64,000 bases of DNA from a virus (taxonomy: Duplodnaviria; Caudoviricetes). Position numbers and translations under genes: made by a program. Positions 18,306 through 41,824 of this stretch are shown in pieces. Numbering within the stretch: the first letter of the stretch is position 1; each line of letters starts with the position of its first letter. The notes under the pieces are model-generated. The model worked only from the letters and a program-made list of their open reading frames with translations. It was not told the DNA's origin and ran no database searches. Location: positions 32,001-96,000 of IMG/VR virus record IMGVR_UViG_3300025912_000012, one strand, 5' to 3'.

Positions 18306-18635
18306 TCAGCGTCTTTCATTTCTCCCCGCATTCTCCCAGGTCAGAGCAGGATTCGGATGCCATTCCAGGTGATTGTGAAAGAAACCTGCGTGACTCGTCT
18401 TGATGCTGTGCTCATGCTCCGCAGCCCCCTCCTCGTCCAGGAGATTGAGCAGCTCGTGGATAACATCGATCAGGTCGTACAGCTCCTCAGGATCACGGTT
18501 CTCCGCGAACTCTCCGTACTCTTCCCCGAGTTTCTTCGTGAGAGCTGACACAGGGTCAGGGGAAATCCTCCACTGCCCGCTGATGTGACCTTCCAGTTTC
18601 TCCTGCTGACGATCACGGACTATCTTCCATCCCAT
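18306..18635 (-). CDS. MazG-like nucleoside triphosphate pyrophosphohydrolase
   Basis: KIVRD...KKLGEEYGEF...EELYDLIDVI. Confidence 0.75.
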   Translation of the reverse strand: MGWKIVRDRQQEKLEGHISGQWRISPDPVSALTKKLGEEYGEFAENRDPEELYDLIDVIHELLNLLDEEGAAEHEHSIKTSHAGFFHNHLEWHPNPALTWENAGRNERR

Positions 18636-19477
18636 TACTCAGCACCTGCACTTTCCCCAGGTACATCTCCAGGATTGCTATCGCTTTTCGGGAGCACCAG
18701 TTCGTCGTTCCTCCGGTAGAGGTAATCCTGGACGGTGATCTTCTCCCCTGTCGCAGGCATGAGGATTTCGCTGGGAAGATGACCGGAGGTTCCCGCGATC
18801 ATCCACGCCTCCCGCAACTGCTCAACGGTGGTAGCTTCCGCTATCTTCGTGATCAGCTGCTCCAGTGTCAGGATCTCTTGTGCGGGAGCCTGCACGCGCC
18901 TGCGTGTCCTTGAAGGAAAAACCTTTGGGATCGTCTCTGCGTCCTCTGACTCGGGAGCCTCGGGTGCTATCACCGGGACATCATCAGTATCCGCAGCGGT
19001 GCTCTCAGGACGCACCAGGGTCCACCTGACGATCGCGTCCTGACTCCCCTTGTTATAAAGGGACAGCCCGAACTGGTCACCCAGGTTGATGGCGCATCTT
19101 CTCAGTGCATATGTCTGGGAGTTTGTCAGGGCATTCCCGTGGGCTTCCCCTCGGACAGGATGGGTTGACTCCCCGACGTGAGCCCCGTCGTAAAAGCACA
19201 CCGGCTCCCCGTCAGGAGCGGAAATGGTAAGCCTCACCCGGGTGCGGTACACGACATACCAGGCTTTCTTGCCCTGGCTTGTCTGTGTCTCGTTCTCGCA
19301 GACCAGCTGCTGGTCAAGAGTCTCCTCGTTCCAGCGCCCGAACCCGAACACCCTGGTCAGCTCAGCGCGTACGTCGTAACCTTCAACGTAGGAGAGTCCC
19401 CGTGTGACCGCTACCCGATTCGGGTGGATTGGCTTGAGCAGGAGATTAATCTGATCCTCGGTGAAGTATCCCATCAT
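18635..19477 (-). CDS. Rad52/Rad22-family single-strand annealing protein
   Basis: LSYVEGYDV..ELTRVFGFGRW, ALRRCAINLG.QFGLSLY. Confidence 0.9.
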   Translation of the reverse strand: MMGYFTEDQINLLLKPIHPNRVAVTRGLSYVEGYDVRAELTRVFGFGRWNEETLDQQLVCENETQTSQGKKAWYVVYRTRVRLTISAPDGEPVCFYDGAHVGESTHPVRGEAHGNALTNSQTYALRRCAINLGDQFGLSLYNKGSQDAIVRWTLVRPESTAADTDDVPVIAPEAPESEDAETIPKVFPSRTRRRVQAPAQEILTLEQLITKIAEATTVEQLREAWMIAGTSGHLPSEILMPATGEKITVQDYLYRRNDELVLPKSDSNPGDVPGESAGAE

Positions 19478-30428: not shown

Positions 30429-30500
30429 GGGGAGATAGTTCAACGGTCAGAATTTCCGGCTCCAACCCGGAAGATGTGGGTTCGAATCCTACTCGCCCTG
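30429..30500 (+). tRNA. tRNA-Trp(CCA)
   Basis: cloverleaf, loop CT-CCA-AC, TTCGAAT. Confidence 0.9.
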
Positions 30501-30589
30501 CGTTACGCCTCTCGTACAGGCTTGCTAAATTGAAAACTACATCTTTTCAGTACAGGTCGGGGGACGGGTTGTGGTACCGTCCTCCGCAT

Positions 30590-30663
30590 GGGCTGCTAGC
30601 TCCAATTGGCAGAGCAACTCCTTTGCACGGAGAAGGCTATCGGTTCGAATCCGATGCGGTCCA
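30590..30663 (+). tRNA. tRNA-Ala(TGC)
   Basis: cloverleaf, G3:U70. Confidence 0.92.
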
Positions 30664-30664
30664 C

Positions 30665-30862
30665 GTGGCAGATAAGAAACTATCAGATGACCTGATTCGC
30701 TGGATCAGGACAGTCAATCTCCCCCAGCGGGTGGTTGCGCACCAGCTGAAACGTAATCACGGGATCACGGTTGACCAGTCACTGATATGGCAGATCAGGG
30801 CAGGCAAGAAATACGCAGACGTTTCAGCTGTCCCCCCGCTTGACACTCTCGGGGATAGCTGA
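30665..30862 (+). CDS. small HTH-like protein
   Basis: GTG after tRNA; PQRVVAHQL...VDQSLIWQIRAGK. Confidence 0.5.
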   Translation: MADKKLSDDLIRWIRTVNLPQRVVAHQLKRNHGITVDQSLIWQIRAGKKYADVSAVPPLDTLGDS

Positions 30863-30868
30863 TAGATT
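30840..30868 (+). promoter_or_regulatory. internal promoter
   Basis: TTGACA-17nt-TAGATT. Confidence 0.7.
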
Positions 30869-30928
30869 TCCTCTCGTTCCCCCGTTGACTTGCTCCTCAG
30901 GAGCACTCGGGGTTCTCGGGGGAACACA

Positions 30929-31002
30929 TGCCAGCTCGTCTAACGTAAGACACCCGTCCTGATAAGACGGGAGATGGTGATAGCGTAATTCACCGCTGGC
31001 CC
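30929..31002 (+). tRNA. atypical tRNA-Ile(GAT) with 9-nt T-loop
   Basis: CCGTC-CTGATAA-GACGG; T-arm GGTGA-TAGCGTAAT-TCACC. Confidence 0.7.
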
Positions 31003-31005
31003 TAT

Positions 31006-31078
31006 GGGGCTGTAGCTCAGCTGGCAGAGCACCTGCATGGCGTGCAGGGGGTCCGGGGTTCGAGTCCCCGTCGCTCCA
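31006..31078 (+). tRNA. tRNA-Ala(GGC)
   Basis: cloverleaf, AT-GGC-GT. Confidence 0.92.
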
Positions 31079-31239
31079 CGCAAAAGCGAAGGAGAAAAGA
31101 ATGGCTAAGAGCAGGGTCAGGAAATGGCTAGGGACTGACGTATCGCTCCGCAAGGCAATGATCTTCATGGTGTTCGTGATGGTTGCCTTGTTCTTGCTCG
31201 CGGTATTCGGGGTGATACAGCCCAGCAAGTAGTGTTAAT

Positions 31240-31272
31240 CAGGATCGAGGAAGACGGTAATCTGCCGCGTGG
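31240..31272 (+). pseudogene. probable 5' half of a tRNA-Pro truncated at the anticodon loop
   Basis: CAGGATC-GA-GGA-AGACGGTAA-TCT-G-CCGCG-T directly before the endonuclease start; no 3' half seen. Confidence 0.45.
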
Positions 31273-31274
31273 AG

Positions 31275-31772
31275 ATGGACACTCACCTGAAGGGCGAGTT
31301 CGCTGTCCTGAAGGTCTTGATGCGAGCGGTAGAAAAAGGCTGGATAGCTAGTCGTCCGACCCGAGAGTGCCGATACGATCTAGTGCTAGATGATAAGGTT
31401 AAGCTCTATCGAGTTCAAGTTAAGTATGCTAATCGGCTAGCATCTCACACTAAAGGAGCGATTCATCTAGCTCTTACGCAAAGTGGAATAAGAAAAAAGA
31501 ATCCCTACCTAGATAGCGAAGTGGATGCACTAATTGTCTACATCGCACCAGCAGACATGTTGATCTGGCTAGAGACAAGTCATTTCCACAAGAAACGACA
31601 GCTCCATATTAGATATGAACCAGGCAAAAATAAGCAGAGGCAGGGAATTCTTCTTGCTGAGAATTACATTTGGTTAGCGGCTTATAGTGTAAGGGTAAGC
31701 GCGCTGGTCTCGGGGACCAGCAGACCAGGTTCGAGTCCTGGTAAGCCGACTAGGCAAGCCACGTGCCTTTAG
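31275..31772 (+). CDS. PD-(D/E)XK homing-type endonuclease (PDDEXK_5-like)
   Basis: KGEFAV..V, RYDLVLD, RVQVKY, EVDALIVY; AT-rich codons. Confidence 0.85.
   Translation: MDTHLKGEFAVLKVLMRAVEKGWIASRPTRECRYDLVLDDKVKLYRVQVKYANRLASHTKGAIHLALTQSGIRKKNPYLDSEVDALIVYIAPADMLIWLETSHFHKKRQLHIRYEPGKNKQRQGILLAENYIWLAAYSVRVSALVSGTSRPGSSPGKPTRQATCL
31678..31749 (+). tRNA. tRNA-Pro(CGG)
   Basis: cloverleaf nested in the 3' end of the endonuclease ORF. Confidence 0.9.
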
Positions 31773-31817
31773 CTGCCACCCTTGCTAGCAGGTTGAACGG
31801 GCAGCATGTGGCACCAT

Positions 31818-31888
31818 CCGGATGTAGTGAAGGGGTAAAACGCCAGCCCTGGGAGCTGGAGTCGGAGGTTCGAATCCTCCCATCTGGA
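31818..31888 (+). tRNA. tRNA-Pro(TGG)
   Basis: CCAGC-CCTGGGA-GCTGG. Confidence 0.9.
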
Positions 31889-31890
31889 CG

Positions 31891-32085
31891 CAGCTGAGTT
31901 CTCCCCCCTGTAAGTTCAGCTGTAATATGATGCGCATGAAAAGATCAGTATCCCGGGCGACTCAGTGGAGACTGGAAACGGTCTGTTGAGGCTCAGAGAT
32001 ACAGGCTACAGGCACTGCGCTGCCCTGGTAGTCCGAATGTCCCACTCCCCTTGCCTCCCCCTGCCCGGGGGTGCAGGGGGGGTGT
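31891..32085 (+). ncRNA. putative structured RNA
   Basis: CAGCTGA hairpin, long GAAA-tetraloop hairpin (GTATC...GATAC), C/G hairpin; no convincing ORF. Confidence 0.4.
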
Positions 32086-32087
32086 AT

Positions 32088-32159
32088 GCCTCCCTAGCTG
32101 AGATGGATTAGCTACCGGTTGAAGCCCGGTGTAGGCAGGCTCGATACCTGCGGGTGGCA
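32088..32159 (+). tRNA. tRNA-Phe(GAA)
   Basis: ACCGG-TTGAAGC-CCGGT. Confidence 0.88.
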
Positions 32160-32160
32160 C

Positions 32161-32332
32161 GAAGCACGCTGCTGATGACTGGCGGCAGGCGTGTTTCCCC
32201 GCTGAGGATCCGTGTCCTCGGCAAACCCCCTCCGTTGAGTCCGCGTCCTTTTCCTTCCTGCGCGGATTCCGGGGGGATCGGGAGGAGGGACGGGCGGTTT
32301 CTGTCCGGTTGCTTGCCTGTCCCTCCTCCTCC
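32161..32332 (+). ncRNA. putative multi-hairpin small RNA
   Basis: four consecutive GC-rich hairpins, one with loop TCCTTTTCCTTCCT. Confidence 0.5.
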
Positions 32333-32382
32333 AGGGTCGTGTAGTGCTGGCTAGGTAGTTCCTGGTTTAATATCCTGATAGA

Positions 32383-32700
32383 GTGCCTACCACTCCTGCG
32401 CAACAAAAACACTATCAGGAGAATCGTGAACGCTACATTGCCCAAGCAGCTCAACGCAGGGCAATGCTGGCGAAAATGGTACGCGAAGCAAAAGATAAAC
32501 CTTGCGCAGATTGCCAGGAGAAATTTCCTTACTACGTAATGGATTTTGATCACGTAAGAGGTAAGAAGATAGCAGCTATAAGTAGATTGATTAACAAAGG
32601 AAGTCTTTCTGCTCTTTTGGCAGAGATGGAAAAGTGTGATGTGGTGTGCGCTAATTGTCACCGCATTCGTACTTGGAGTTATCTTGCGGATGTAGCTTAG
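32383..32700 (+). CDS. HNH endonuclease
   Basis: CADC, DFDHV, EMEKCDVVCANCHRIRT. Confidence 0.9.
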   Translation: MPTTPAQQKHYQENRERYIAQAAQRRAMLAKMVREAKDKPCADCQEKFPYYVMDFDHVRGKKIAAISRLINKGSLSALLAEMEKCDVVCANCHRIRTWSYLADVA

Positions 32701-32759
32701 TGGTAAAGCCCTTGCCTTCCAAGCAAGCCACGCCGGTTCAATTCCGGTCATCCGTTCCA
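32686..32759 (+). tRNA. tRNA-Gly(TCC)
   Basis: cloverleaf with encoded CCA. Confidence 0.93.
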
Positions 32760-32831
32760 GGTTATAGTTCAGCTTGGTAGAACGCTAGCTCGGGGAGCTA
32801 GAGGTCGCAGGTTCGAATCCTGCTAGCCTGA
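32758..32831 (+). tRNA. tRNA-Pro(GGG)
   Basis: CTAGC-TCGGGGA-GCTAG. Confidence 0.92.
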
Positions 32832-33055
32832 CGTGTTTAAGAAAAGAACAAGGCGCATGCCTAAGAGAATAATCAAGAGAAGAGCAAAGCGACTGGGGAA
32901 AACCCGGTTCGACTGTCCGCGATGCCTTTCCGTGGTCCCCTGCGAAGGATGCAAAAGGGGGTCGGAAGGGCGAAACTAGAGGAGAATTGTCATGCGAAAG
33001 CCTAAGCAGCCCCGGTTGAGGCGGAGCCGAAACAGGCTCCCCCGAAAGCTTTGAT

Positions 33056-33128
33056 GCTCCGGTAGCTCAGTGGCTAGAGCAGGCGGCTCTTAACCGTCGT
33101 GTCGTGGGTTCGATCCCCACTCGGAGTA
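33056..33128 (+). tRNA. tRNA-Lys(CTT)
   Basis: cloverleaf. Confidence 0.93.
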
Positions 33129-33291
33129 CGTAAGGAGAATGATGAGATATGTGCTCATATACAGGATGGTGCGACTGCCGCTGCCGCCCTTGCCTTAACG
33201 GGAAGCATCATAAGAGGCACACGAGACAGTGCCACAAGAATTGCTAGGAGAAAATCATGGGGACTAAACAGAACCTGACTTCGGGCATCAT

Positions 33292-33364
33292 GCTCCGATA
33301 GCTCAGTGGAAGAGCGGTGGGCTTTTAACCCGCGTCGTCCTCGGTTCGAACCCGAGTCGGAGTA
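33292..33364 (+). tRNA. tRNA-Lys(TTT)
   Basis: cloverleaf. Confidence 0.93.
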
Positions 33365-33366
33365 CT

Positions 33367-33507
33367 ATGAGAAAGCAATGTGATCGCTGTAACGGCGATA
33401 AGTTCATGAAAGACGAGGACGGAGAGTTTATCCTCGATGAGAACGGGGAGAAAATCCCTTGCACATTGTGTCTCGGGAGAGGTTATATTACTATCAGTTT
33501 TATGTAA
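33367..33507 (+). CDS. DnaJ-type zinc-finger microprotein
   Basis: CDRCNGDK...CTLCLGRG. Confidence 0.6.
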   Translation: MRKQCDRCNGDKFMKDEDGEFILDENGEKIPCTLCLGRGYITISFM

Positions 33508-33582
33508 GGGCGACTGAAGGGAACTGGCATACCTGGCTAGCTCAAACCTAGTCGTTTCCCGGTTCAAATCCGGGGTCGCCTA
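33508..33582 (+). tRNA. tRNA-Leu(CAA), short variable loop
   Basis: GCTAG-CTCAAAC-CTAGT. Confidence 0.88.
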
Positions 33583-33601
33583 CGCAAAAGAGGAAAACGT
33601 C

Positions 33602-33688
33602 TTGAAAAATATATGCTGCGGGGTTTGCTGGAGGTTCTTTTCAAATAAAGAAATACGAGCGCACATGAGAATTCATGCAAAAAAGTAA
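33602..33688 (+). CDS. C2H2 zinc-finger microprotein
   Basis: GAGGA RBS, TTG start; CGVC.RFF.....AHMRIH. Confidence 0.6.
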   Translation: MKNICCGVCWRFFSNKEIRAHMRIHAKK

Positions 33689-33693
33689 TACAA

Positions 33694-33764
33694 TTCCGGA
33701 TCGTTCAACGGCAGGATGCTAGGCTCTGAACCTGGTGATGTTGGTTCGAATCCAGCTCCGGAAG
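33694..33764 (+). tRNA. tRNA-Gln(CTG)
   Basis: cloverleaf. Confidence 0.92.
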
Positions 33765-33843
33765 CGCAACAGATCGCAGGCGTGGCTGTCTTGCGACTGG
33801 AGAGAGAAACGGTGCGCCAGCTGGCTTACGCCTCTCTCGGCAT

Positions 33844-33914
33844 GCCCCTGTAGCATAATGGCAGTGCACCGCACTCGTAATGCGGCAGTCCCTGGTCAGT
33901 ACAGGGCTGGGGCT
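33844..33914 (+). tRNA. tRNA-Thr(CGT), atypical T-loop
   Basis: CCGCA-CTCGTAA-TGCGG; T-loop GTCAGTA. Confidence 0.82.
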
Positions 33915-33986
33915 CTAGCGACGGGCTTGATGTGCGGCTTAGCGCCGTGACGGGAGTAGCGATCCTGTGTCGTGAAATTCGCCCAT

Positions 33987-34071
33987 GCGCTTGTGGCGGA
34001 ACGGTATACGCGCTAGCTTGAGGTGCTAGTGGTCCGCAAGGGCTGTGCAGGTTCAAATCCTGTCAGGCGCA
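33987..34071 (+). tRNA. tRNA-Leu(GAG)
   Basis: cloverleaf with long variable arm. Confidence 0.93.
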
Positions 34072-34185
34072 CGTAAGGAAAGGGAAAAGAATGAGATGCC
34101 CTCGATGCACGGGAATGCCAAAGGCTGCTTGTATCTGTAAAAGAAAATGCAGGTCTCGGCACTGCCTGTTCCCGTTTTAAAGCAT

Positions 34186-34257
34186 GCCGGATTAGCTCAG
34201 TGGTAGCAGCTACCCCCTTGTAAGGGGAAGACATCAGTTCGATTCTGTTATCCGGCT
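34186..34257 (+). tRNA. tRNA-Thr(TGT)
   Basis: cloverleaf. Confidence 0.88.
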
Positions 34258-34415
34258 CTGGAGGGGGAATGTGAGAGCAAAACGAACTCCTGCGGAAAGA
34301 AAAGAATTGAGAAAGCATCAAGGGTGGGTTACCTGCCCCGATTGCCTGCGGAGAATGTACTGGGTTATTTTCAAGCCGCGAAGATGTCGTTACTGTGGAG
34401 AGAGGCTGACTTAAA

Positions 34416-34652
34416 ATGGATTTCAGCGATGCTCTGCGAGCGATGAAAGACGGAAAGAAAGTCCAGCGGGGAATCTGGAAAAACCAGGCAGTCTTCGGTC
34501 GATTTGACCCGTGGGCGGAAATAGAACAACCCGCACCAGGCTGGGCAAAGATAGTAGTAATAAAAAGCAACGACCCGGGAGTCCCGAACCGCGCAGCTAC
34601 GCTATCGCAATGGGATGTTGTCGAGGCGGATGACTGGGAAATCGTAGAATAG
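34416..34652 (+). CDS. DUF2829 / Tad2-like protein
   Basis: MDFSDALRAMKDGKKVQRGIW...SQWDVVEADDWEIV. Confidence 0.7.
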   Translation: MDFSDALRAMKDGKKVQRGIWKNQAVFGRFDPWAEIEQPAPGWAKIVVIKSNDPGVPNRAATLSQWDVVEADDWEIVE

Positions 34653-34657
34653 CTTAA

Positions 34658-34729
34658 TGCGGAGTGGGGTAATGGCAACCCGAGAGTTTTTGGCACTCTG
34701 AGATGCGCGTTCGAGTCGCGCCTCCGCAG
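34658..34729 (+). tRNA. tRNA-Gln(TTG)
   Basis: cloverleaf. Confidence 0.9.
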
Positions 34730-34740
34730 CAGGAGGAATC

Positions 34741-35028
34741 ATGGAAATCGTAGAGATAAAGAGCACCAGTTACCCTAACGCAGCGGAACTCCCTAACAAG
34801 TCAGGGCGTCCCATCGCAAAGCGCCAGGGATCTCCTGGCGGTAACTCCAGGATGGAAAAGCACCGCTCCGGATCGTACATGCCCCGCCTGGGTGGCAGGC
34901 TGCTCACGGAACAGCAGAAGTCTGACCGGGACGCTACCGCGTCAGGTAAGATGATCCTGATCATCATCGCGGGAAAGAAGCGCAGATTCATTCGCGAAAA
35001 GGATTACCTTGAAGGGAGGTACTTCTGA
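34741..35028 (+). CDS. basic hypothetical protein
   Basis: AGGAGG RBS. Confidence 0.65.
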   Translation: MEIVEIKSTSYPNAAELPNKSGRPIAKRQGSPGGNSRMEKHRSGSYMPRLGGRLLTEQQKSDRDATASGKMILIIIAGKKRRFIREKDYLEGRYF

Positions 35029-35399
35029 TGAGGGGTGTCGGAGGTAACTAATGCCAGAGGGCAGGCTGGTCCCGGACAGGGACTGGGAAGGGAATTTCAC
35101 CGGGGTGCTGGTGTGTGTCAGCTGCCTGGGATGGAACTGCCAGCACGCACGCGGCGAGATTTGCGACATCCGCAACTGCGGGTGTAAGCTAGGATACTAC
35201 GTCAGTCCGATCACACCGACCCCCCAGTCGTTAAACGGGATACCATGTGGCATATATGCTCCTGTAACGCCTACGCTTGCATCTGCCAGGCTGCACTGAG
35301 GGAAAACTACAGGGATTGTTTCGACTGCTGGGCTGGGTACCACTGGTACAAGCAGGAGAAAAAGAAGAAAAAGTACGAGGTCCCCGCATAGGGGACTGT

Positions 35400-35472
35400 G
35401 CCCGCTTAGTGATAACGGTAAGCACACTGCCTTGGTAAGGCAGGGGTCGGAGTTCAATTCTCCGGGTGGGCT
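35400..35472 (+). tRNA. tRNA-Thr(GGT)
   Basis: cloverleaf. Confidence 0.92.
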
Positions 35473-35473
35473 C

Positions 35474-35549
35474 GTGGCCGTGGTGTCAGCGGTTAGCATC
35501 TGACCTTGCCAAGGTTAGGGGGCGAGTTCGAATCTCGTCGGTCACTCCA
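35474..35549 (+). tRNA. tRNA-Gly(GCC)
   Basis: cloverleaf with CCA. Confidence 0.92.
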
Positions 35550-35663
35550 GGAGTAAGGAAATCAGGGTTGATTCACCCACGGAGCCCTGGTTTCTCCTGC
35601 GGGAGGACGTGAGGTTGCAGGTATCAACCGGTGAAACCTGGTAATTTGCGTCTCTCTCGTGAT

Positions 35664-35734
35664 GCGAGTGTAGCTCAATGGCAGAGTTCTAGCTTCCCAA
35701 GCTAGATACGCGGGTCCGATTCCCGTCACTCGCT
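35664..35734 (+). tRNA. tRNA-Gly(CCC)
   Basis: cloverleaf. Confidence 0.9.
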
Positions 35735-35763
35735 CGAAAAAGAAAAGAACAGAATGGGATGCA

Positions 35764-36234
35764 ATGCGCAAGCTACTGGTTATTGTCGCGATAATCCTGG
35801 TAGGGATGGCGTACGCGGGGGACAAGAAAGTCCTCCATAAGGGAGGTTATCACGCCTCTCGCTCAGCAAGACAGGCAATCTCGTACGCGAGGGCTCAGCT
35901 GGGGAAACCGTACCTGTGGGGAGCGCAAGGACCGAATGCGTTCGACTGCTCAGGACTGACGTACAGGGCATGGAGGCTCCCCTCATCTCAGCGGACATCT
36001 GAGCAGCAGTGGAGTGCACAGCAGCACGTATCTCACCCTCACCCGGGGGACCTGGTATACTTTCGCGGGGTCCTCGTAGGGGGCGAATCTCCTCCTGGGC
36101 ACGTCGGGATCGTCATCGGGAAAAACAAGATGATCGACGGGTACGGGAGTGGTACGGTAATGAGGATCGAGTCGTTCGGGAAGGCTAGCTCAGCTCCCGG
36201 ACTGCAGGAAGTGATGGGTTTCACCCGTCCGTGA
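35764..36234 (+). CDS. secreted NlpC/P60 peptidase
   Basis: QLGKPYLWGA.GP.AFDCSGL, PGDLVYF, GHVGI. Confidence 0.93.
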   Translation: MRKLLVIVAIILVGMAYAGDKKVLHKGGYHASRSARQAISYARAQLGKPYLWGAQGPNAFDCSGLTYRAWRLPSSQRTSEQQWSAQQHVSHPHPGDLVYFRGVLVGGESPPGHVGIVIGKNKMIDGYGSGTVMRIESFGKASSAPGLQEVMGFTRP

Positions 36235-36243
36235 GGGCGGTAT

Positions 36244-36328
36244 GCGCTGGTGGTGGAATGGCAGACACGCTGGACTCAGAATCCAGTGATCCGGAAGGGT
36301 CGTGAGAGTTCAAATCTCTCTCAGCGTA
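36244..36328 (+). tRNA. tRNA-Leu(CAG)
   Basis: cloverleaf with long variable arm. Confidence 0.93.
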
Positions 36329-36343
36329 CGGAAGGGAAAAGAA

Positions 36344-36760
36344 ATGGGAAACGTCAAGCAGGTCATCGTTATACGGAAAGACCTGAAAATGCGCCGGGGT
36401 AAGGAAATAGCACAGGGTGCGCATGCCTCGATAGCATTCCTGACTCATCAGATTGAAAGACTCGGGGGTGCAAGCAAACTACACCCGCAGGACGATAAGC
36501 TGTTTGCCTGCGCGTTCATCACCCAGGCTGAATCTGACTGGATCCGGGGGAATTTCCGTAAGATATGCTGCATCGTGAACAGCGAGGAAGAACTGCTCGC
36601 GCTTGTCGAGAAGGCGAAAGCGGCACAGGTTACCTGTGAGCTGATCCAGGATGCGGGGCTTACCGAATTCGGAGGGACTCCTACGTATACCGCAGCCGCG
36701 TTCGGACCGGACTATGATGAGAACCTGGACCCGATCACCGGAGACCTGGTGCTATACTGA
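36344..36760 (+). CDS. pth2: peptidyl-tRNA hydrolase, Pth2 family
   Basis: KQVIVIRKDLKMRRGKEIAQGAHAS, IQDAGLTEF, FGP, ITGDL.L. Confidence 0.95.
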   Translation: MGNVKQVIVIRKDLKMRRGKEIAQGAHASIAFLTHQIERLGGASKLHPQDDKLFACAFITQAESDWIRGNFRKICCIVNSEEELLALVEKAKAAQVTCELIQDAGLTEFGGTPTYTAAAFGPDYDENLDPITGDLVLY

Positions 36761-36916
36761 TTTCCTGAGAGGGGGGTTGGGTATGGCAAAGCTGCACGCA
36801 CGTCCTAGTAATCAGTATCGGTACGAGCATTACGACCCTTGGAGTTGAAAGACACGGGACAGTGGCTACCGCGTTCCCGTGAGCCCGGACTATCCTGGGG
36901 TAGAGCGGTGGCACCT

Positions 36917-37001
36917 GGAGGATGAACCGGACAGGCGTGCCGGGCTCCGTTGCTAGCGGATGCGCAGGTGATACTGTGGCTTTCGAATAGTCCGTCCTCC
37001 G
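36917..37001 (+). tRNA. (8/4) tRNA-Ser(GCT)
   Basis: 8-bp acceptor GGAGGATG/CGTCCTCC, 4-bp T-stem. Confidence 0.88.
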
Positions 37002-37125
37002 CGTGATTAAGAGAATGATCATGTGCACCGGATGCCTGAAGCTAGCCCCGTATGGTAAGGTTTTCTGTCCGCATTGCGGAAAGCCCCTGACGAACGGCGG
37101 GGGCGGGAACTGAAAAGGGAAAAGA

Positions 37126-37386
37126 ATGGGATTCGCGATATTCGTACTGCTGATGATCGGGCTTGTCGCTTTCCTTTCGAGGAAGGCGCTGTTCCGCAAG
37201 AGGGTGGTACGCAGGCTGAGTGATGACCGGCAGCTCTACGAGAGTTCTCGTGTTCCCGTCACCGGTCCGTGCGCCTGCGGAAAGCCCAGGTGCCCCTATA
37301 AGGGTAAGAAGCATCCTCCGCAGACTACCCCTGGTCGGCATGCTCACAAGGTTCACAGGGTGGAGCAGCTGAGGAAAAAGAAGTAA
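37126..37386 (+). CDS. membrane-anchored hypothetical protein
   Basis: N-terminal TM segment, CACGKPRC. Confidence 0.6.
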   Translation: MGFAIFVLLMIGLVAFLSRKALFRKRVVRRLSDDRQLYESSRVPVTGPCACGKPRCPYKGKKHPPQTTPGRHAHKVHRVEQLRKKK

Positions 37387-37391
37387 AGCAC

Positions 37392-37476
37392 GGAGGATGA
37401 ACCCGTCAGGGTACGGGCACTCGCTGGAAACGAGTTGAGCCTACGGGTTACGGTTCGAGTCCGTCGTCCTCTTCCA
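37392..37476 (+). tRNA. (8/4) tRNA-Ser(GGA)
   Basis: 8-bp acceptor, ACGG/CCGT T-stem, CCA. Confidence 0.9.
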
Positions 37477-37477
37477 T

Positions 37478-37565
37478 GGAGAGTGAACCTGCCAGGGAGC
37501 AGGCGCTGCCTCGAAAACAGCTGGGTGTCCTGTGAGACACTGGGGCTCGGGACCTCCGCTCTCCG
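37478..37565 (+). tRNA. (8/4) tRNA-Ser(CGA)
   Basis: GGAGAGTG/CGCTCTCC, GGGG/CCTC. Confidence 0.85.
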
Positions 37566-37975
37566 CATGGAAACGCAGTACACTCATTACACGAAGAACT
37601 GGGCGAACGTCACGGCATGCAATAAACCTGTCCGTCAGGTCATGTACGTCAGCCATCACGCCAGGATGGTGACGTGCCCTTTCTGTAAGACGAAACTCTG
37701 AAAGGAAACGAAATGAAAAAGTGCAGGTTCTGCGGTGAGGATCTTTACCGGGAGGGACGCTACTGGACGACGAAGCAGTACAGTACGATACCGGCTTCGA
37801 TCGTCTGCCAGTCACCGAAATCCCCGAATTACCGGCATTCTCCGAAGTAACGGGAGCTACCGACATGGCAGTGTACGCAAAAGAATGCGGGAATAAGCAA
37901 CACGGGAAGTGCGGTATCTGCGGAGGATGCAAGGTCTCAAGTTGCCGCTCACGCGGATGCTGGGGCTGTTTCTGA

Positions 37976-38057
37976 CGGGAGCATGCTACCGGCGTAGCAC
38001 CCTGCCTTGAAAGCAGGGACAGGGTAACTCCTGGGGGATCGACACCTCTGCTCTCGG
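37976..38057 (+). tRNA. (8/4) tRNA-Ser(TGA)
   Basis: CGGGAGCA/TGCTCTCG, GGGG/CCTC. Confidence 0.85.
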
Positions 38058-38068
38058 CGTAAACACAT

Positions 38069-38142
38069 GGACATCAGTTCACCTGGTTGGTGGAGCTACG
38101 CTGATAACGTAGTCGTGCAGGGTTCAATTCCCTGGGTGTCTA
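38069..38142 (+). tRNA. tRNA-Ile(GAT)
   Basis: CTACG-CTGATAA-CGTAG. Confidence 0.88.
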
Positions 38143-38143
38143 C

Positions 38144-38216
38144 GGGCTAGAAGCCAAACGGTTGAGGCACCTGTCTTATGAACAGCGGATACTGGGTTCA
38201 ACTCCTAGCTAGCCTA
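38144..38216 (+). tRNA. tRNA-Ile(TAT)
   Basis: anticodon loop CT-TAT-GA. Confidence 0.85.
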
Positions 38217-38229
38217 CGCAGGAGGATGA

Positions 38230-38454
38230 ATGCTGAAAAAGAAATCGAAAGACATACGTCTCGGGGACCTGATCCGCACGATGTGGAAGGTGGAGGGCAA
38301 GACGAAGGTCGTCTGCCTGCACTGCGAGTGGCGACCCACCAAGGGCATCGGGTATCCTAACGCCACCCGGGAAGCCAGGGCGCACACCAGGGACAGAAAG
38401 CACCTGACCAGGGTCGCGTCCGTAGAGATCGTAGAATACCGCGTTAAGAGATGA
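38230..38454 (+). CDS. CxxC..H..H zinc-binding protein
   Basis: GGAGG RBS; CLHC...AHTRDRKH. Confidence 0.65.
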   Translation: MLKKKSKDIRLGDLIRTMWKVEGKTKVVCLHCEWRPTKGIGYPNATREARAHTRDRKHLTRVASVEIVEYRVKR

Positions 38455-38815
38455 TATGGACCTGGAACAGTTTTTCGCACATCACTCAGACGAGAGCATG
38501 GAGCCTGTCGATATCGTCTGGGAGTGGGTTCCTGCCGGAACCTACGGGTACTGGCAGCGGGACCCTCACCATGAGGCGATGAAAGTCCTCCGCGACGCTG
38601 GTATGCTGGCTCCCGTGATCACAGAGGAGCTTCCCTGATGGCTCCCCCTAGTGGTATCCGCGTCTACATCAAGAACCACTACAGCTGCGATGACTGCGGC
38701 GCGGAAAAAGGGAAATGGTGCATAGCGTTCAAGGACGGCAAGTCTCATCAGGGTTTGTTGCACAGGTCCCGGCTAGTCAAGTATCATAGGGACAGCGAGA
38801 ACTTCGGGTAAACAC

Positions 38816-38887
38816 GCCCCTGTCGTTCAAAGGACAGGACTACTGCCTTCTAAGCAGTCAATGAGGGTTCGATTCCTTCCAGGGGTG
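38816..38887 (+). tRNA. tRNA-Arg(TCT)
   Basis: cloverleaf. Confidence 0.92.
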
Positions 38888-38952
38888 CGATCCCCCTTTG
38901 ATAGAGCTGGGCAGGCACCTAAGGGGTCTAGGTGCTCGGGAAGACCTGCCAT

Positions 38953-39024
38953 GCTCCCATCGTCCATGGGTTAGGATCCGTGTTTCTCAGACACGGGAAC
39001 GGAGTTCAAGTCTCCGTGGGAGTA
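38953..39024 (+). tRNA. tRNA-Glu(CTC)
   Basis: cloverleaf. Confidence 0.92.
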
Positions 39025-39391
39025 CGCATGAAACCACTGACACCTGACGAACAGGATGCCCTGGCAGCCAACTGCGGCTGGTGCTGGGCGTATCCAGGAA
39101 AACCATGCGTCACAGTCTCCGGGGTGATCCGCAGGCATCCGCATAAGAGGAGGATCATCCGCGCAGAGCGCAGGGGAGTCCTCGGGGGGGTGGGGAGAGT
39201 ACTGATGGAAAACTGGAAGAGAAACGCATGACAACGGTATACAGGTGTCCTCGCGGCGGGTTTCACAAGTTCGCGAAGAAGAAAGTGATCGCTATCACCT
39301 GGGTTCACAAGGTTCCGTGGATTACCAGGAAGGTTAAGTGCACGAAATGTGGCGGGCTTTTCCCTAAAGGAATCACCGCACCATAATACAT

Positions 39392-39463
39392 GGTCCCATC
39401 GTCTATGGGTTAGGATCCGAGGTTTTCACCCTCGGGGACGGAGTTCGAATCTCCGTGGGATCA
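39392..39463 (+). tRNA. tRNA-Glu(TTC)
   Basis: cloverleaf. Confidence 0.92.
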
Positions 39464-39464
39464 C

Positions 39465-39536
39465 GCCGACATGGTGAACTGGCTATCACGCGTCTCTCAT
39501 AAGGACGAGTATCTCGGTCGATACGAGATGTCGGTA
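39465..39536 (+). tRNA. elongator tRNA-Met(CAT); Ile2 not excluded
   Basis: CGTCT-CTCATAA-GGACG; T-loop GTCGATA. Confidence 0.8.
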
Positions 39537-39553
39537 CGCAGGAAGGAAGGATC

Positions 39554-39772
39554 ATGAAGCAGCACATCTGGTGTCTCGTTGACCGGTTCACGAAGCTGAC
39601 AGACGAGATGAACGAGCTGAAAGAGCAGACCCGGGAGCTGTCCTCGGAGAGGGATCAGGTTGCCCTGGAGATGACCCTCACGGGACTGCACCTGCGGGAA
39701 CTGGGGAAGATGTGCGGAGTGAGTGCCCCGCTGATCTGCCGCCTGGCACAGAAAGCCAGGAATAAGATTTGA
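39554..39772 (+). CDS. small HTH protein
   Basis: LHLRELGKMCGVSAPLICRL. Confidence 0.65.
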   Translation: MKQHIWCLVDRFTKLTDEMNELKEQTRELSSERDQVALEMTLTGLHLRELGKMCGVSAPLICRLAQKARNKI

Positions 39773-39797
39773 CACCGGCTGCTGCTGGGTGTAGGGT
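39769..39797 (+). promoter_or_regulatory. internal promoter before the initiator tRNA
   Basis: TTGACA-17nt-TAGGGT. Confidence 0.7.
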
Positions 39798-39808
39798 TTA
39801 AACATCGA

Positions 39809-39882
39809 CGCGGGTTGGAGAAGCTAGGTATCTCGCTGGGCTCATAACCCAGAGGACCCCGGTTCGAATCCGGGACCCGCTA
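39809..39882 (+). tRNA. initiator tRNA-fMet(CAT)
   Basis: unpaired C1, three G-C pairs in the anticodon stem. Confidence 0.92.
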
Positions 39883-39919
39883 CTGGACCTGGGGTATGTC
39901 TGTAAACTGCCCCGAACTT

Positions 39920-39992
39920 TGGCCTCTAGCTTAACTGGCAGAGTCACTCCCTGTTAAGGAGTTCGGTCCCGGTTCGAATCCGGGGGGGTCAG
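39920..39992 (+). tRNA. tRNA-Asn(GTT)
   Basis: cloverleaf. Confidence 0.92.
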
Positions 39993-40033
39993 CGGATCGG
40001 GGTATATGGTTCCGCCCTGCCCCGGTCACCAAT

Positions 40034-40105
40034 GGTCCTATAGTGAAGCGGACATCACATCGCCCCGTCAAGGCGATAGCCCGGGTTCAACTCCCGGTAG
40101 GATCG
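40034..40105 (+). tRNA. tRNA-Asp(GTC)
   Basis: cloverleaf. Confidence 0.92.
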
Positions 40106-40239
40106 CTGGGGGAACAGTGTGGCACTGGTTAAAAAAGTACTCGTATTGTGTAGTTGCCACTGTCCCTACTGTCTCCCCAGAGGCGGAACGCATTGCGGTG
40201 TCAGCAGTAACGGATGTCCCGTAAGATGAAGGAACTGAA

Positions 40240-40428
40240 ATGATGCTTGCAGACAAACTGAACTCACCTGCCCTCACGGCTGTCGGGTTTTCTCTTACGG
40301 TAATTGCCTCAGCTTGTGTCGTGATTGCCTCAGCGCGGCTATTCGGGCTGCGGGGACTGCTAGTCTCCAGTGGCTTGCTGGCAATCGTAGCGCTTATCAT
40401 GGGTATTATAGTTGCAGGACACAACTGA
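40240..40428 (+). CDS. small membrane protein
   Basis: two TM segments. Confidence 0.6.
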   Translation: MMLADKLNSPALTAVGFSLTVIASACVVIASARLFGLRGLLVSSGLLAIVALIMGIIVAGHN

Positions 40429-40433
40429 ATTCC

Positions 40434-40504
40434 GGGTGACTAGCTCAATGGGAGAGCACTGGCTCGACAAGCCAGGGATAGGGGTTCAATTCCCTTGTCG
40501 CCTA
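40434..40504 (+). tRNA. tRNA-Val(GAC)
   Basis: cloverleaf. Confidence 0.92.
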
Positions 40505-40505
40505 C

Positions 40506-40587
40506 GGGGATGAGAAGGGTTCGACTAGCCTTAAAGCCGGTGATGCCGGAACTGGCTAGGACTCCGGTTCGACACCGGGCATCTCCA
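40506..40587 (+). ncRNA. minimal tmRNA: tRNA-like domain only, no tag reading frame
   Basis: GGGGATG/CATCTCC-A acceptor with G3:U70, stemless D-loop ending GGTTCGAC, CTAGCC/GGCTAG stem, GAC connector, TCCGG-TTCGACA-CCGGG T-arm. Confidence 0.8.
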
Positions 40588-40640
40588 CGGGTCCGGGGGT
40601 TAGCTTCAAAGGATTTTGTGGTTAGGTTCTGGACTTTCAT

Positions 40641-40713
40641 GCACCCGTCGTCTAAAGGACTAGGATAACGGCCTACGAAGCCGTTGATGGAGGTTCGATT
40701 CCTCTCGGGTGTG
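40641..40713 (+). tRNA. tRNA-Arg(ACG)
   Basis: cloverleaf. Confidence 0.92.
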
Positions 40714-40933
40714 CGCAAGGAAAGGAAAAGAAATGATAGCGGTACTGATAACTGCGGTAGCATTCTGCGGTACCTTGTATGCGACAGTCCATCCTGGTCC
40801 GCTGCACGGGTTTTTTCACCCCGCGCACTATTCCACAGGGAATGCCATAGCACAGGTCAGCTACGCGCTGATCATCGGGGCGATTGCTTACATGATTGAC
40901 AGGAGATTCTCGCGGAGGCGAAGAAGATAATAC

Positions 40934-41005
40934 GGTCGATTAGCTCAGCGGCAGAGCAGCGCCCCTACAAGGCGCGGCGCGGGGGTTCGAGTCCCTCATC
41001 GACTA
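40934..41005 (+). tRNA. tRNA-Val(TAC)
   Basis: cloverleaf. Confidence 0.92.
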
Positions 41006-41063
41006 CGAAAGTCCTGGTTAACTTACATATCACGTGTTCGCTTGCACTCCAGGGCTTTCTCAT

Positions 41064-41135
41064 GGCGGGTATAGCACAATGGTAGTGCGCTGGACTGTGA
41101 ATCCGGTTATCCGAGTTCAATTCTCGGTATTCGCC
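41064..41135 (+). tRNA. tRNA-His(GTG)
   Basis: cloverleaf with G-1:C73. Confidence 0.92.
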
Positions 41136-41321
41136 CGAGTAAGGGGGAGTTGTGAGGATTCTAGGGAGACGCAGGGAACAAAAGTGTTCCCTTTGCAGGA
41201 TAAGGCGTCGCATTAAAGGTGCGACTATTTGTTCTGTATGCTACAATAAGTCGGTCGGGACTTCGGTTAGGAGCAAGTAATGCATCGATATTATCCGGGT
41301 CAGTACACCTCGCGCTGACTC

Positions 41322-41401
41322 GCCGGATCTTGCACTGGGATGCTCGATTGCCTGTAAAGCAATTGCCTCTGGCTAGACAAGTTCGATTCTTGTATCCGGT
41401 A
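41322..41401 (+). tRNA. tRNA-Tyr(GTA)
   Basis: ATTGC-CTGTAAA-GCAAT, variable arm. Confidence 0.85.
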
Positions 41402-41824
41402 CGTGGGTAAAGTCCTCAGTTTTCCGCCAAGATGCCCGAAATGCAAGGCTCCCCCGCGAAGAGCAATAGGGAGTCAGAGCACCGGGCTGATCATCTATAC
41501 TTGCTCGGGCAAGGATAGGCATAAATGGAATAAGACGTTCACCAACCTAACCAGATAGCTGTCATGAAGACTTATTTTCCGAAGGAAATGATCCACGTGC
41601 GACGCGACGGGATGACCTTCTGCGTGATCTGCCAGTACCTGTGTGTACGCGGTCAGCGCTGTAACTGTTGCAGGCGTACCTGATGAAAATATGGATGTGG
41701 ATTAACACAGTGATAATACTGTCCTCACTTCCGCTGATAGCGGTCAGCGAGAATGCGGCAGCTGCCGCACTTATCGCCGGGGCGGTATCGACTGCCGTCA
41801 GGATGACAGTCCAGCGCTGAAAAT

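Follow-up and report, generated by a model that had tools for sequence, protein, structure and literature searches.

A tmRNA reduced to its tRNA-like domain (TLD) lies at positions 40506-40587 on the plus strand of the window, the whole 64,000-nucleotide stretch of viral DNA analyzed here. The RNA keeps exactly the tmRNA parts that face RNase P, alanyl-tRNA synthetase (AlaRS), EF-Tu and SmpB, and it is without all message parts. Judged by comparison of related sequences, this mini-tmRNA is a widespread form that constitutes a large conserved phage family. We consider it reasonably probable that this is a working phage gene whose product, a tag-less mini-tmRNA, is charged with alanine, binds host SmpB and competes with host tmRNA; here charging, SmpB binding and a benefit to the phage are the parts that we infer. 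Bacteria rescue ribosomes and exert quality control mainly by trans-translation, which is also a drug target. That a widespread natural 80-nt RNA retains the half of tmRNA turned toward AlaRS and SmpB suggests interference with this route by many phages, whose genomes range from 16 kb up to 135 kb, the latter with full tRNA sets. The family may represent a minimal natural ligand of SmpB, and it offers a natural experiment on what a tRNA-like domain is capable of without a message.

The gene measures 82 nt to the discriminator A. Its letters at 40506-40587 (plus strand) are GGGGAUG-AGAAGGGUUCGA-CUAGCC-UUAAAG-CCGGUGAUGCCGG-AACU-GGCUAG-GAC-UCCGG-UUCGACA-CCGGG-CAUCUCC-A, and the 3'-terminal CCA is not encoded, CGG being the next letters in the sequence. 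Its parts are as follows.

40506-40587, plus strand: mini-tmRNA gene (TLD only), from Rfam RF00023 (48.9 bits), our own model R1 (76.5 bits) and reading of the sequence
40506-40512, plus strand: 5' strand of the acceptor stem, GGGGAUG (G1, G2, G3), pairing with 40580-40586; the stem is 99.9% paired family-wide
40513-40524, plus strand: stemless D-loop AGAAGGGUUCGA, which carries GG and the tmRNA-TLD motif UCGA(C) and aligns with GGaUUCGAC in the tmRNA consensus
40525-40530, plus strand: 5' strand of the P2 stem, CUAGCC, pairing with 40554-40559
40531-40553, plus strand: P2 cap, from the fold, made of the A-rich linker UUAAAG, the hairpin CCGGU-GAU-GCCGG (40537-40549) and the linker AACU
40554-40562, plus strand: 3' strand of the P2 stem, GGCUAG, then GAC (jointly the conserved GGAC), from the fold and the tmRNA-model alignment
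40563-40579, plus strand: T-arm with stem UCCGG/CCGGG and loop UUCGACA, from the sequence and the tmRNA-model alignment
40580-40587, plus strand: 3' strand of the acceptor stem, CAUCUCC (U70 opposite G3), and the discriminator A (A82 in RNA numbering), from the sequence

The acceptor stem has 7 bp, including G3:U70, and the discriminator is A73. The D-loop has 12 nt and no stem, with GGGUUCGA at its end. P2 comprises 6 bp (C20-C25 with G49-G54 in RNA numbering), and its cap accounts for the 23 nt between both P2 strands. All stems are intact in sequence and fold. The thermodynamic fold of the mini-tmRNA by itself is unremarkable (z = -2.0), and the case for the element therefore rests on comparison with related sequences.

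The Rfam tmRNA model RF00023 matches 40506-40590 over model positions 1-374, with 19 nt replacing 308 internal positions. The whole-window search gives 48.9 bits (E 2.7e-16), over the gathering score of 47, and the whole-genome search gives the same score; it falls to 40.4 bits if 135 nt alone are searched, and the margin over the threshold is small. R1 is a covariance model built from 18 family members, with the window's sequence among the 18 and that of mycobacteriophage DS6A not. It scores the element at 76.5 bits, a value that is partly circular because the element is in the training set, and its second-best site in the 135-kb genome is a tRNA-Ala at 24.9 bits. R1 separates the family from tRNAs, with 48-90 bits for members, 65.7 bits for DS6A and 20-25 bits for tRNAs. 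The tRNA-like domain is complete, with the 7-bp acceptor carrying G3:U70 and A73, the stemless D-loop, the T-arm and the P2 helix. The mRNA-like domain, with its resume codon, tag frame and stop, and pseudoknots, is missing, 23 nt lying between the P2 strands, and a canonical tagging tmRNA is thus impossible. The layout is that of the TLD-only DS6A type, namely 82 nt in all (under about 100 nt), halves in standard order and a short capped P2. The context is of that type as well, since the carrier genome (88% complete) has neither SmpB nor a full-length tmRNA.

Other assignments fail. A two-piece or permuted tmRNA is rejected by the standard order of the halves and by the scores of RF04321 (16.2 bits against 47) and RF01851 (10.2 bits against 70). 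A tRNA-Ala is rejected by the lack of any ARAGORN call or RF00005 match, and by the P2 helix with its capped hairpin, which occupies the place of the anticodon arm. A preliminary description of this DNA had proposed an 82-nt tmRNA consisting only of the tRNA-like domain at these positions. The sequence is as it described, with the G3:U70 pair, the stemless D-loop and the P2-like stem closed by a small hairpin all present, and both models (48.9 bits for Rfam tmRNA and 76.5 bits for R1) uphold the proposal; its statement that there is no anticodon loop likewise holds. The Infernal and ARAGORN runs that it suggested as a check gave a divided result. RF00023 passes its cut-off, whereas the mt-tmRNA model RF02544, run on the whole genome, matches nothing at E up to 1 and ARAGORN calls neither a tRNA nor a tmRNA at 40506-40587.

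A hidden tag frame was also considered. The element contains a 7-codon frame, GCC GGU GAU GCC GGA ACU GGC then UAG, at 40536-40559 (plus strand). This frame is absent from DS6A and from two tRNA-array carriers (L033 and L064), and since it is not common to them we read it as a product of chance. In the family at large, 24 of 96 members contain a GCN...stop frame, where shuffling of the middles leads one to expect 32, and middle lengths show no periodicity of three bases. A hidden tag frame of the GCC...UAG kind is rejected, such frames being no commoner in the family than in shuffled sequences. These counts, together with the 23 nt available between the P2 strands, bear out the initial reading that pseudoknots, resume codon and tag ORF are all lacking.

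As a kind, the TLD-only phage tmRNA is known from the literature. "Mycobacterium phage DS6A (TLD only)", tmID 11587 of the tmRNA Website, is an entry in Hudson, Lau and Williams (2014; PMC4131195), and the 2025 tmRNA database (PMC11915505) again gives DS6A as the phage example beside tag-less mitochondrial tmRNAs and two plastid genes of ~65 bp. The preliminary description had cited a precedent from mitochondria only, and DS6A corrects it in this respect. What is new here, relative to the literature searched, is the breadth, conservation and missing annotation of the mini-tmRNA family; that literature contained no description of a wider phage family. We place the DS6A element of JN698994 at 28478-28560, between gp33 and gp34, where it carries no annotation; its Rfam tmRNA score is 43.2 bits. 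The DS6A and window elements are alike in being phage-borne, ~80 nt long and in the standard half order, with G3:U70, a stemless D-loop ending in UCGAC and a discriminator A. Both have a 5-6-bp P2 with an A-rich linker and a small hairpin cap, followed by G(G/C)AC and the T-arm, and both are without a tag frame and without a phage SmpB. They differ in sequence, with ~43% identity (36 of 85 aligned columns), and in setting: the DS6A copy stands alone between protein genes of a 60-kb temperate siphovirus and falls below the Rfam cut-off at 43.2 bits, whereas the window's copy is in a 35-tRNA array of a ~135-kb phage and reaches 48.9 bits.

Other cultured phages also match family members, namely the Streptomyces phages LuckySocke, GiJojo, pSt2308, BRock and Alone3 and the Stenotrophomonas virus Jojan60. 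Two of their elements were placed as follows.

OR725497.1, 17977-18054 (L316, 2501-2578): mini-tmRNA of LuckySocke, R1 73.4 bits
NC_048650.1, about 97143-97220 (L315, 2492-2569), minus strand: mini-tmRNA of BRock (Borockvirus), R1 67.1 bits

The BRock copy has UUUUGAC instead of UUCGAC. The BRock and LuckySocke elements share the architecture of the window's copy and sit in a tRNA array next to tRNA-Val(tac), with Arg(acg), His and Tyr genes and an RNA ligase gene close by; homologues in phage tRNA arrays, which the preliminary description had suggested seeking, therefore exist. The Streptomyces phage copies differ from the window's in starting with GGGU, not GGGG, and in reaching no more than about 75% identity. 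With the window's element as query, none of these Streptomyces phages was retrieved at E up to 10. GenBank has no RNA-gene annotation for the Streptomyces phage copies, and in GiJojo a 'hypothetical protein' (gene 44) overlies the element. The cultured carriers BRock and LuckySocke make the purpose of a tag-less phage tmRNA directly testable.

The bacterial one-piece tmRNA (SsrA, RF00023) shares with the window's element the acceptor with G3:U70 and A73, the D-loop GG...UUCGAC, P2a, GGAC and the T-arm with its UUCGA loop. The difference is the ~300 nt between its P2 strands (pseudoknots, resume codon, tag frame and stop), which the window's element does not have. Tag-less organellar tmRNAs are known from jakobid and oomycete mitochondria (RF02544) and from two ~65-bp Mallomonadaceae plastid genes (PMC3985003, PMC11915505). 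They are similar in having a TLD without a tag frame and a presumed partner SmpB encoded elsewhere (PMC3985003, PMC11915505). They differ in their replicon and evolutionary setting; the phage element has no RF02544 match, and a conserved P2 cap is peculiar to the phage form.

The family was delimited by a scan of IMG/VR with a strict pattern (GGGG, TCGAC, AC-4N-GTTCGA, CTCCA and a middle of 20-50 nt), which matches at least 119 contigs; these contain at least 94 different sequences, 68-92 nt long. Of the 119 loci listed, 118 form the complete acceptor of seven pairs, although the pattern had fixed only four. UCGAC and (G)GAC were imposed by the search patterns, and their conservation is not an independent result. 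The GG of the D-loop, left free by every pattern, occurs in 93 of 96 members. GGAC is seen in 86 of 96. Pair counts anchored on the motifs, with no alignment freedom, give 99-100% pairing for acceptor pairs 5-7 with three to six pair types each, 100% for the T stem with four of five positions varying, and 88-100% for P2 over six positions with all Watson-Crick and wobble types. In the alignment based on R1, 98.6% of cells are paired, against 68.0% when shuffled, and the covariation score is 0.758 against 0.146, a value that 0 of 500 shuffles reach. As a control, pairing was counted with the partners shifted by 1-3 columns, and it falls to 40-55%. In the same alignment P2 is 96% paired, with 5 of 6 pairs covarying, and the T stem is 100% paired, with 4 of 5 pairs covarying. 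The layout of the cap, an internal loop whose 5' side is 67% A and then a hairpin, is kept in 82 of 96 members; the hairpin usually has 3-4 bp and a tetraloop such as CAUG, CACG, CAAG or GNRA.

Detection of the family depends on the tool. At E up to 1e-4, R1 finds exactly one match per source in 96 sources, always the mini-tmRNA and never a tRNA. The Rfam tmRNA cut-off is passed by 39 of 45 mini forms in the larger carrier records, at 47-75 bits. ARAGORN detection is erratic, with 'tmRNA' called on just 5 of the 119 loci listed (L011, L016, L054, L080 and L106). Annotation is accordingly missing: ARAGORN misses most copies, and the GenBank phage records checked do not annotate the element. When the region and the element were compared by megablast and blastn with 50,697 phage records, a set that may lack close relatives, nothing genuine matched; among the family members fetched, none exceeds 76% identity to the window's copy. 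The same pattern applied to bacterial genomes yields about 33 genuine copies among the matches listed, in Actinomycetota, Bacillota, Cyanobacteria, Bacteroidota, Gemmatimonadota, Chloroflexota, Saccharibacteria and others. The remaining bacterial matches (Planctomycetota, Krumholzibacteriota and Gemmatimonadota) were discarded as 3' parts of ordinary full-length tmRNAs. The false matches from Planctomycetota and Krumholzibacteriota measure 85-95 nt and arise from a chance upstream GGGG...TCGAC, with only 4-5 of 7 acceptor pairs formed; they include the Planctomycetota MAG loci L133, L136, L137, L143, L145, L191, L192 and L200, and L129, L139, L156 and others from Krumholzibacteriota.

G3:U70 and A73 form the identity set by which AlaRS recognizes tRNA-Ala and tmRNA. 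A repeat scan used a second pattern that ran from UUCGAC through the T-arm and left the acceptor free. Among the 88 distinct genuine matches listed, G1:C72 is present in 88, G2:C71 in 87, G3:U70 in 87 and A73 in 88. In these matches the pair 4:69 takes five forms, and pairs 5-7 covary. An identity set that is invariant beside freely varying neighbour pairs argues for selection for alanylation, and the RNAs of the family would then be charged with alanine. The same invariance suggests that the mini-tmRNA may work in its charged form, entering stalled ribosomes, beyond merely soaking up SmpB.

The window is part of a 135,079-bp IMG/VR virus record that is 88% complete. ARAGORN places 35 tRNA genes on the plus strand, from 30429 to 41402. 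Rfam adds a tRNA at 38144-38216 (plus strand, 49.4 bits), not listed by ARAGORN, which abuts tRNA-Ile(gat) at 38069-38143, and the array thus holds at least 36 tRNA genes. Further genes in and near the array are the following.

24582-25751, plus strand: RtcB RNA ligase, upstream of the tRNA array (Pfam, 361 bits)
35764-36234, plus strand: ORF like an NlpC/P60-type peptidase, inside the array, judged from its sequence only
36302-36760, plus strand: Pth2-like ORF inside the array, identified by a motif in its translation and by matching phrog_1866 (function unknown)
40434-40505, plus strand: tRNA-Val(gac), directly upstream, with its discriminator at 40504, one base before G1 of the mini-tmRNA (ARAGORN; Rfam tRNA 62 bits)
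40641-40714, plus strand: tRNA-Arg(acg), 53 nt downstream of the mini-tmRNA (ARAGORN, Rfam)

No promoter or terminator was predicted between the mini-tmRNA and the flanking tRNA genes, and no CCA-adding enzyme was found in this phage genome. The preliminary description had proposed a search for smpB in the rest of the genome. That search found none in the 135-kb genome (88% complete), and SmpB is equally absent from all 45 larger carrier records, 17 of which are at least 90% complete. Nor is there a full-length tmRNA in the 45 carrier records. The same description had the phage Pth2 recycling the product of the mini-tmRNA. As a general feature, a partnership with Pth2 or RtcB is rejected: both are encoded in this genome, yet PTH2 is found in only 1 of 45 other carriers and RtcB in 2 of 45, and 96 of the 119 loci listed have no tRNA gene in the fetched stretch. 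DS6A, like this phage, also encodes RtcB. A dedicated protein partner was sought among ORF clusters within 5 kb of 121 elements and rejected, the clusters being lineage-specific terminase, portal and capsid genes only. The largest lineage, to which complete 16-kb genomes with terminal repeats belong, has the mini-tmRNA between the genes for the large terminase and the portal, on their strand; in another lineage it lies about 190 nt upstream of the capsid gene, again on the same strand. Three small carriers (L016, L027 and L004) are IMG/VR records of 15.6-16.3 kb that are 97-100% complete, the L016 record having direct terminal repeats. Excision of the element in these three would split the late transcript between terminase and portal.

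The proposed function can be laid out as a sequence of steps. The mini-tmRNA would be transcribed together with the tRNA array, to judge by the common strand, the 1-nt spacer after tRNA-Val and the lack of predicted signals nearby. It would be excised by host RNase P and 3' processing, receive its CCA from the host enzyme and be charged with alanine by host AlaRS, as the invariant G1-G2-G3:U70 and A73 suggest. Because the phage is without SmpB, the mini-tmRNA must act on or with host SmpB, which it would bind through the conserved D-loop UCGAC, the GGAC and the core of the T-loop. It would then compete with host tmRNA for SmpB and probably also, as Ala-RNA with EF-Tu, for the empty A sites of stalled ribosomes. 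No degradation tag would be added, the resume codon and tag frame being absent. The net effect during infection would be that host trans-translation and tagging are suppressed or diverted.

Competition with host tmRNA is the best-supported effect, because inhibition by a similar molecule has been published. PMC4131195, citing Mao et al. (2009), reports that a similar TLD-only molecule strongly inhibits tmRNA, perhaps by SmpB titration, and that it does so 'whether or not chargeable'. The sources conflict on what was tested, which was 'a similar molecule' according to PMC4131195 and the DS6A form itself according to PMC11915505. Of the two roles put forward in the preliminary description, that of an SmpB decoy fits this reported inhibition. 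If plain titration of SmpB suffices, the strict conservation of the AlaRS set is unexplained, a sign that the RNA may have to be charged for its role. Nor is it evident what a phage would gain by blocking ribosome rescue. The other role, productive tag-less rescue, is possible if somewhat unlikely. Here the alanyl mini-tmRNA, with host SmpB and EF-Tu, would enter the stalled ribosome and accept the nascent chain. The peptidyl-RNA would next be released by host ArfA/RF2, by ArfB, or by drop-off and peptidyl-tRNA hydrolase. Ribosomes would be recycled for the phage with no protein marked for degradation, and several alanines might be added if the cycle repeats. In favour of this role, the alanine identity set does not vary even where the search left it free, and a pure sponge would not need it; this genome also encodes a Pth2-like protein and RtcB next to the array, and PMC11915505 supposes that mitochondrial tag-less tmRNAs accompanied by SmpB assist where mRNAs are incomplete. 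Against such rescue, no release-type partner is conserved beside the element, with PTH2 in only 1 of 45 carriers, the ribosome would again be left with an empty A site for want of a resume codon, and for the similar molecule the reported effect on tmRNA function is inhibition rather than replacement (PMC4131195). A tag-free rescue route run by the phage, through which phage synthesis would keep its ribosomes while escaping SsrA-directed proteolysis, seems rather unlikely. What speaks for it is that the alanine identity set, which a passive decoy would not need, is strictly conserved across very different phages.

It is quite improbable that the element is a tRNA-shaped RNA acting outside trans-translation, whether as a signal for RNase P/Z processing, a decoy for anti-phage nucleases or an alanine donor for non-ribosomal transferases. 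Such a role would suit the many small phages in which the element lies within one operon (terminase-element-portal or upstream of the capsid gene), where excision would split the mRNA, and it recalls the RtcB of this phage and DS6A, an RNA repair ligase. Of 45 carriers, however, just 2 have RtcB. Any tRNA would do as a processing signal or nuclease decoy, and neither the invariant G3:U70 and A73 nor the tmRNA-specific D-loop would be required. Moreover, the Rfam tmRNA model separates the elements from tRNAs (39 of 45 over the cut-off), and tRNAs score weakly with R1 (20-25 bits against 48-90). A functionless, decaying remnant of a full-length phage tmRNA of the Bxz1 kind has a very small probability. 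Bxz1, of the same subfamily as Myrna, has a full-length 437-nt tmRNA, while none was found in Myrna, the closest cultured match, or in Streptomyces phage Satis, which shows that the gene was gained and lost in this actinobacteriophage group. Every stem of the window's copy is nevertheless intact, and the mini form is shared by at least 94 different sequences, in which changes are compensatory and the identity set does not vary. The P2 cap is conserved, and the mini form is present even in complete 16-kb phage genomes. The covariation largely refutes the remnant reading, and the recent deletion that the preliminary description had named as a possible refutation is contradicted by a form conserved, with compensatory changes, in many unrelated phages. 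Origin from a Bxz1-like full-length tmRNA was also rejected, the Bxz1 TLD being by eye no closer to the window's than tmRNA TLDs generally.

The host of this phage is probably an actinobacterium, because one of its conserved proteins is 39% identical to mycobacteriophage Myrna gp18 and 33% identical to proteins of large Streptomyces phages. The sole PTH2 carrier among the 45 is a 115-kb record (G015, the record of L033), in which the mini-tmRNA lies at 32357-32441 and scores 57.3 bits. This record has a second, weaker match to the tmRNA model at 18620-18697 on the plus strand (32.3 bits), which could be a divergent second copy or a tRNA-Ala.
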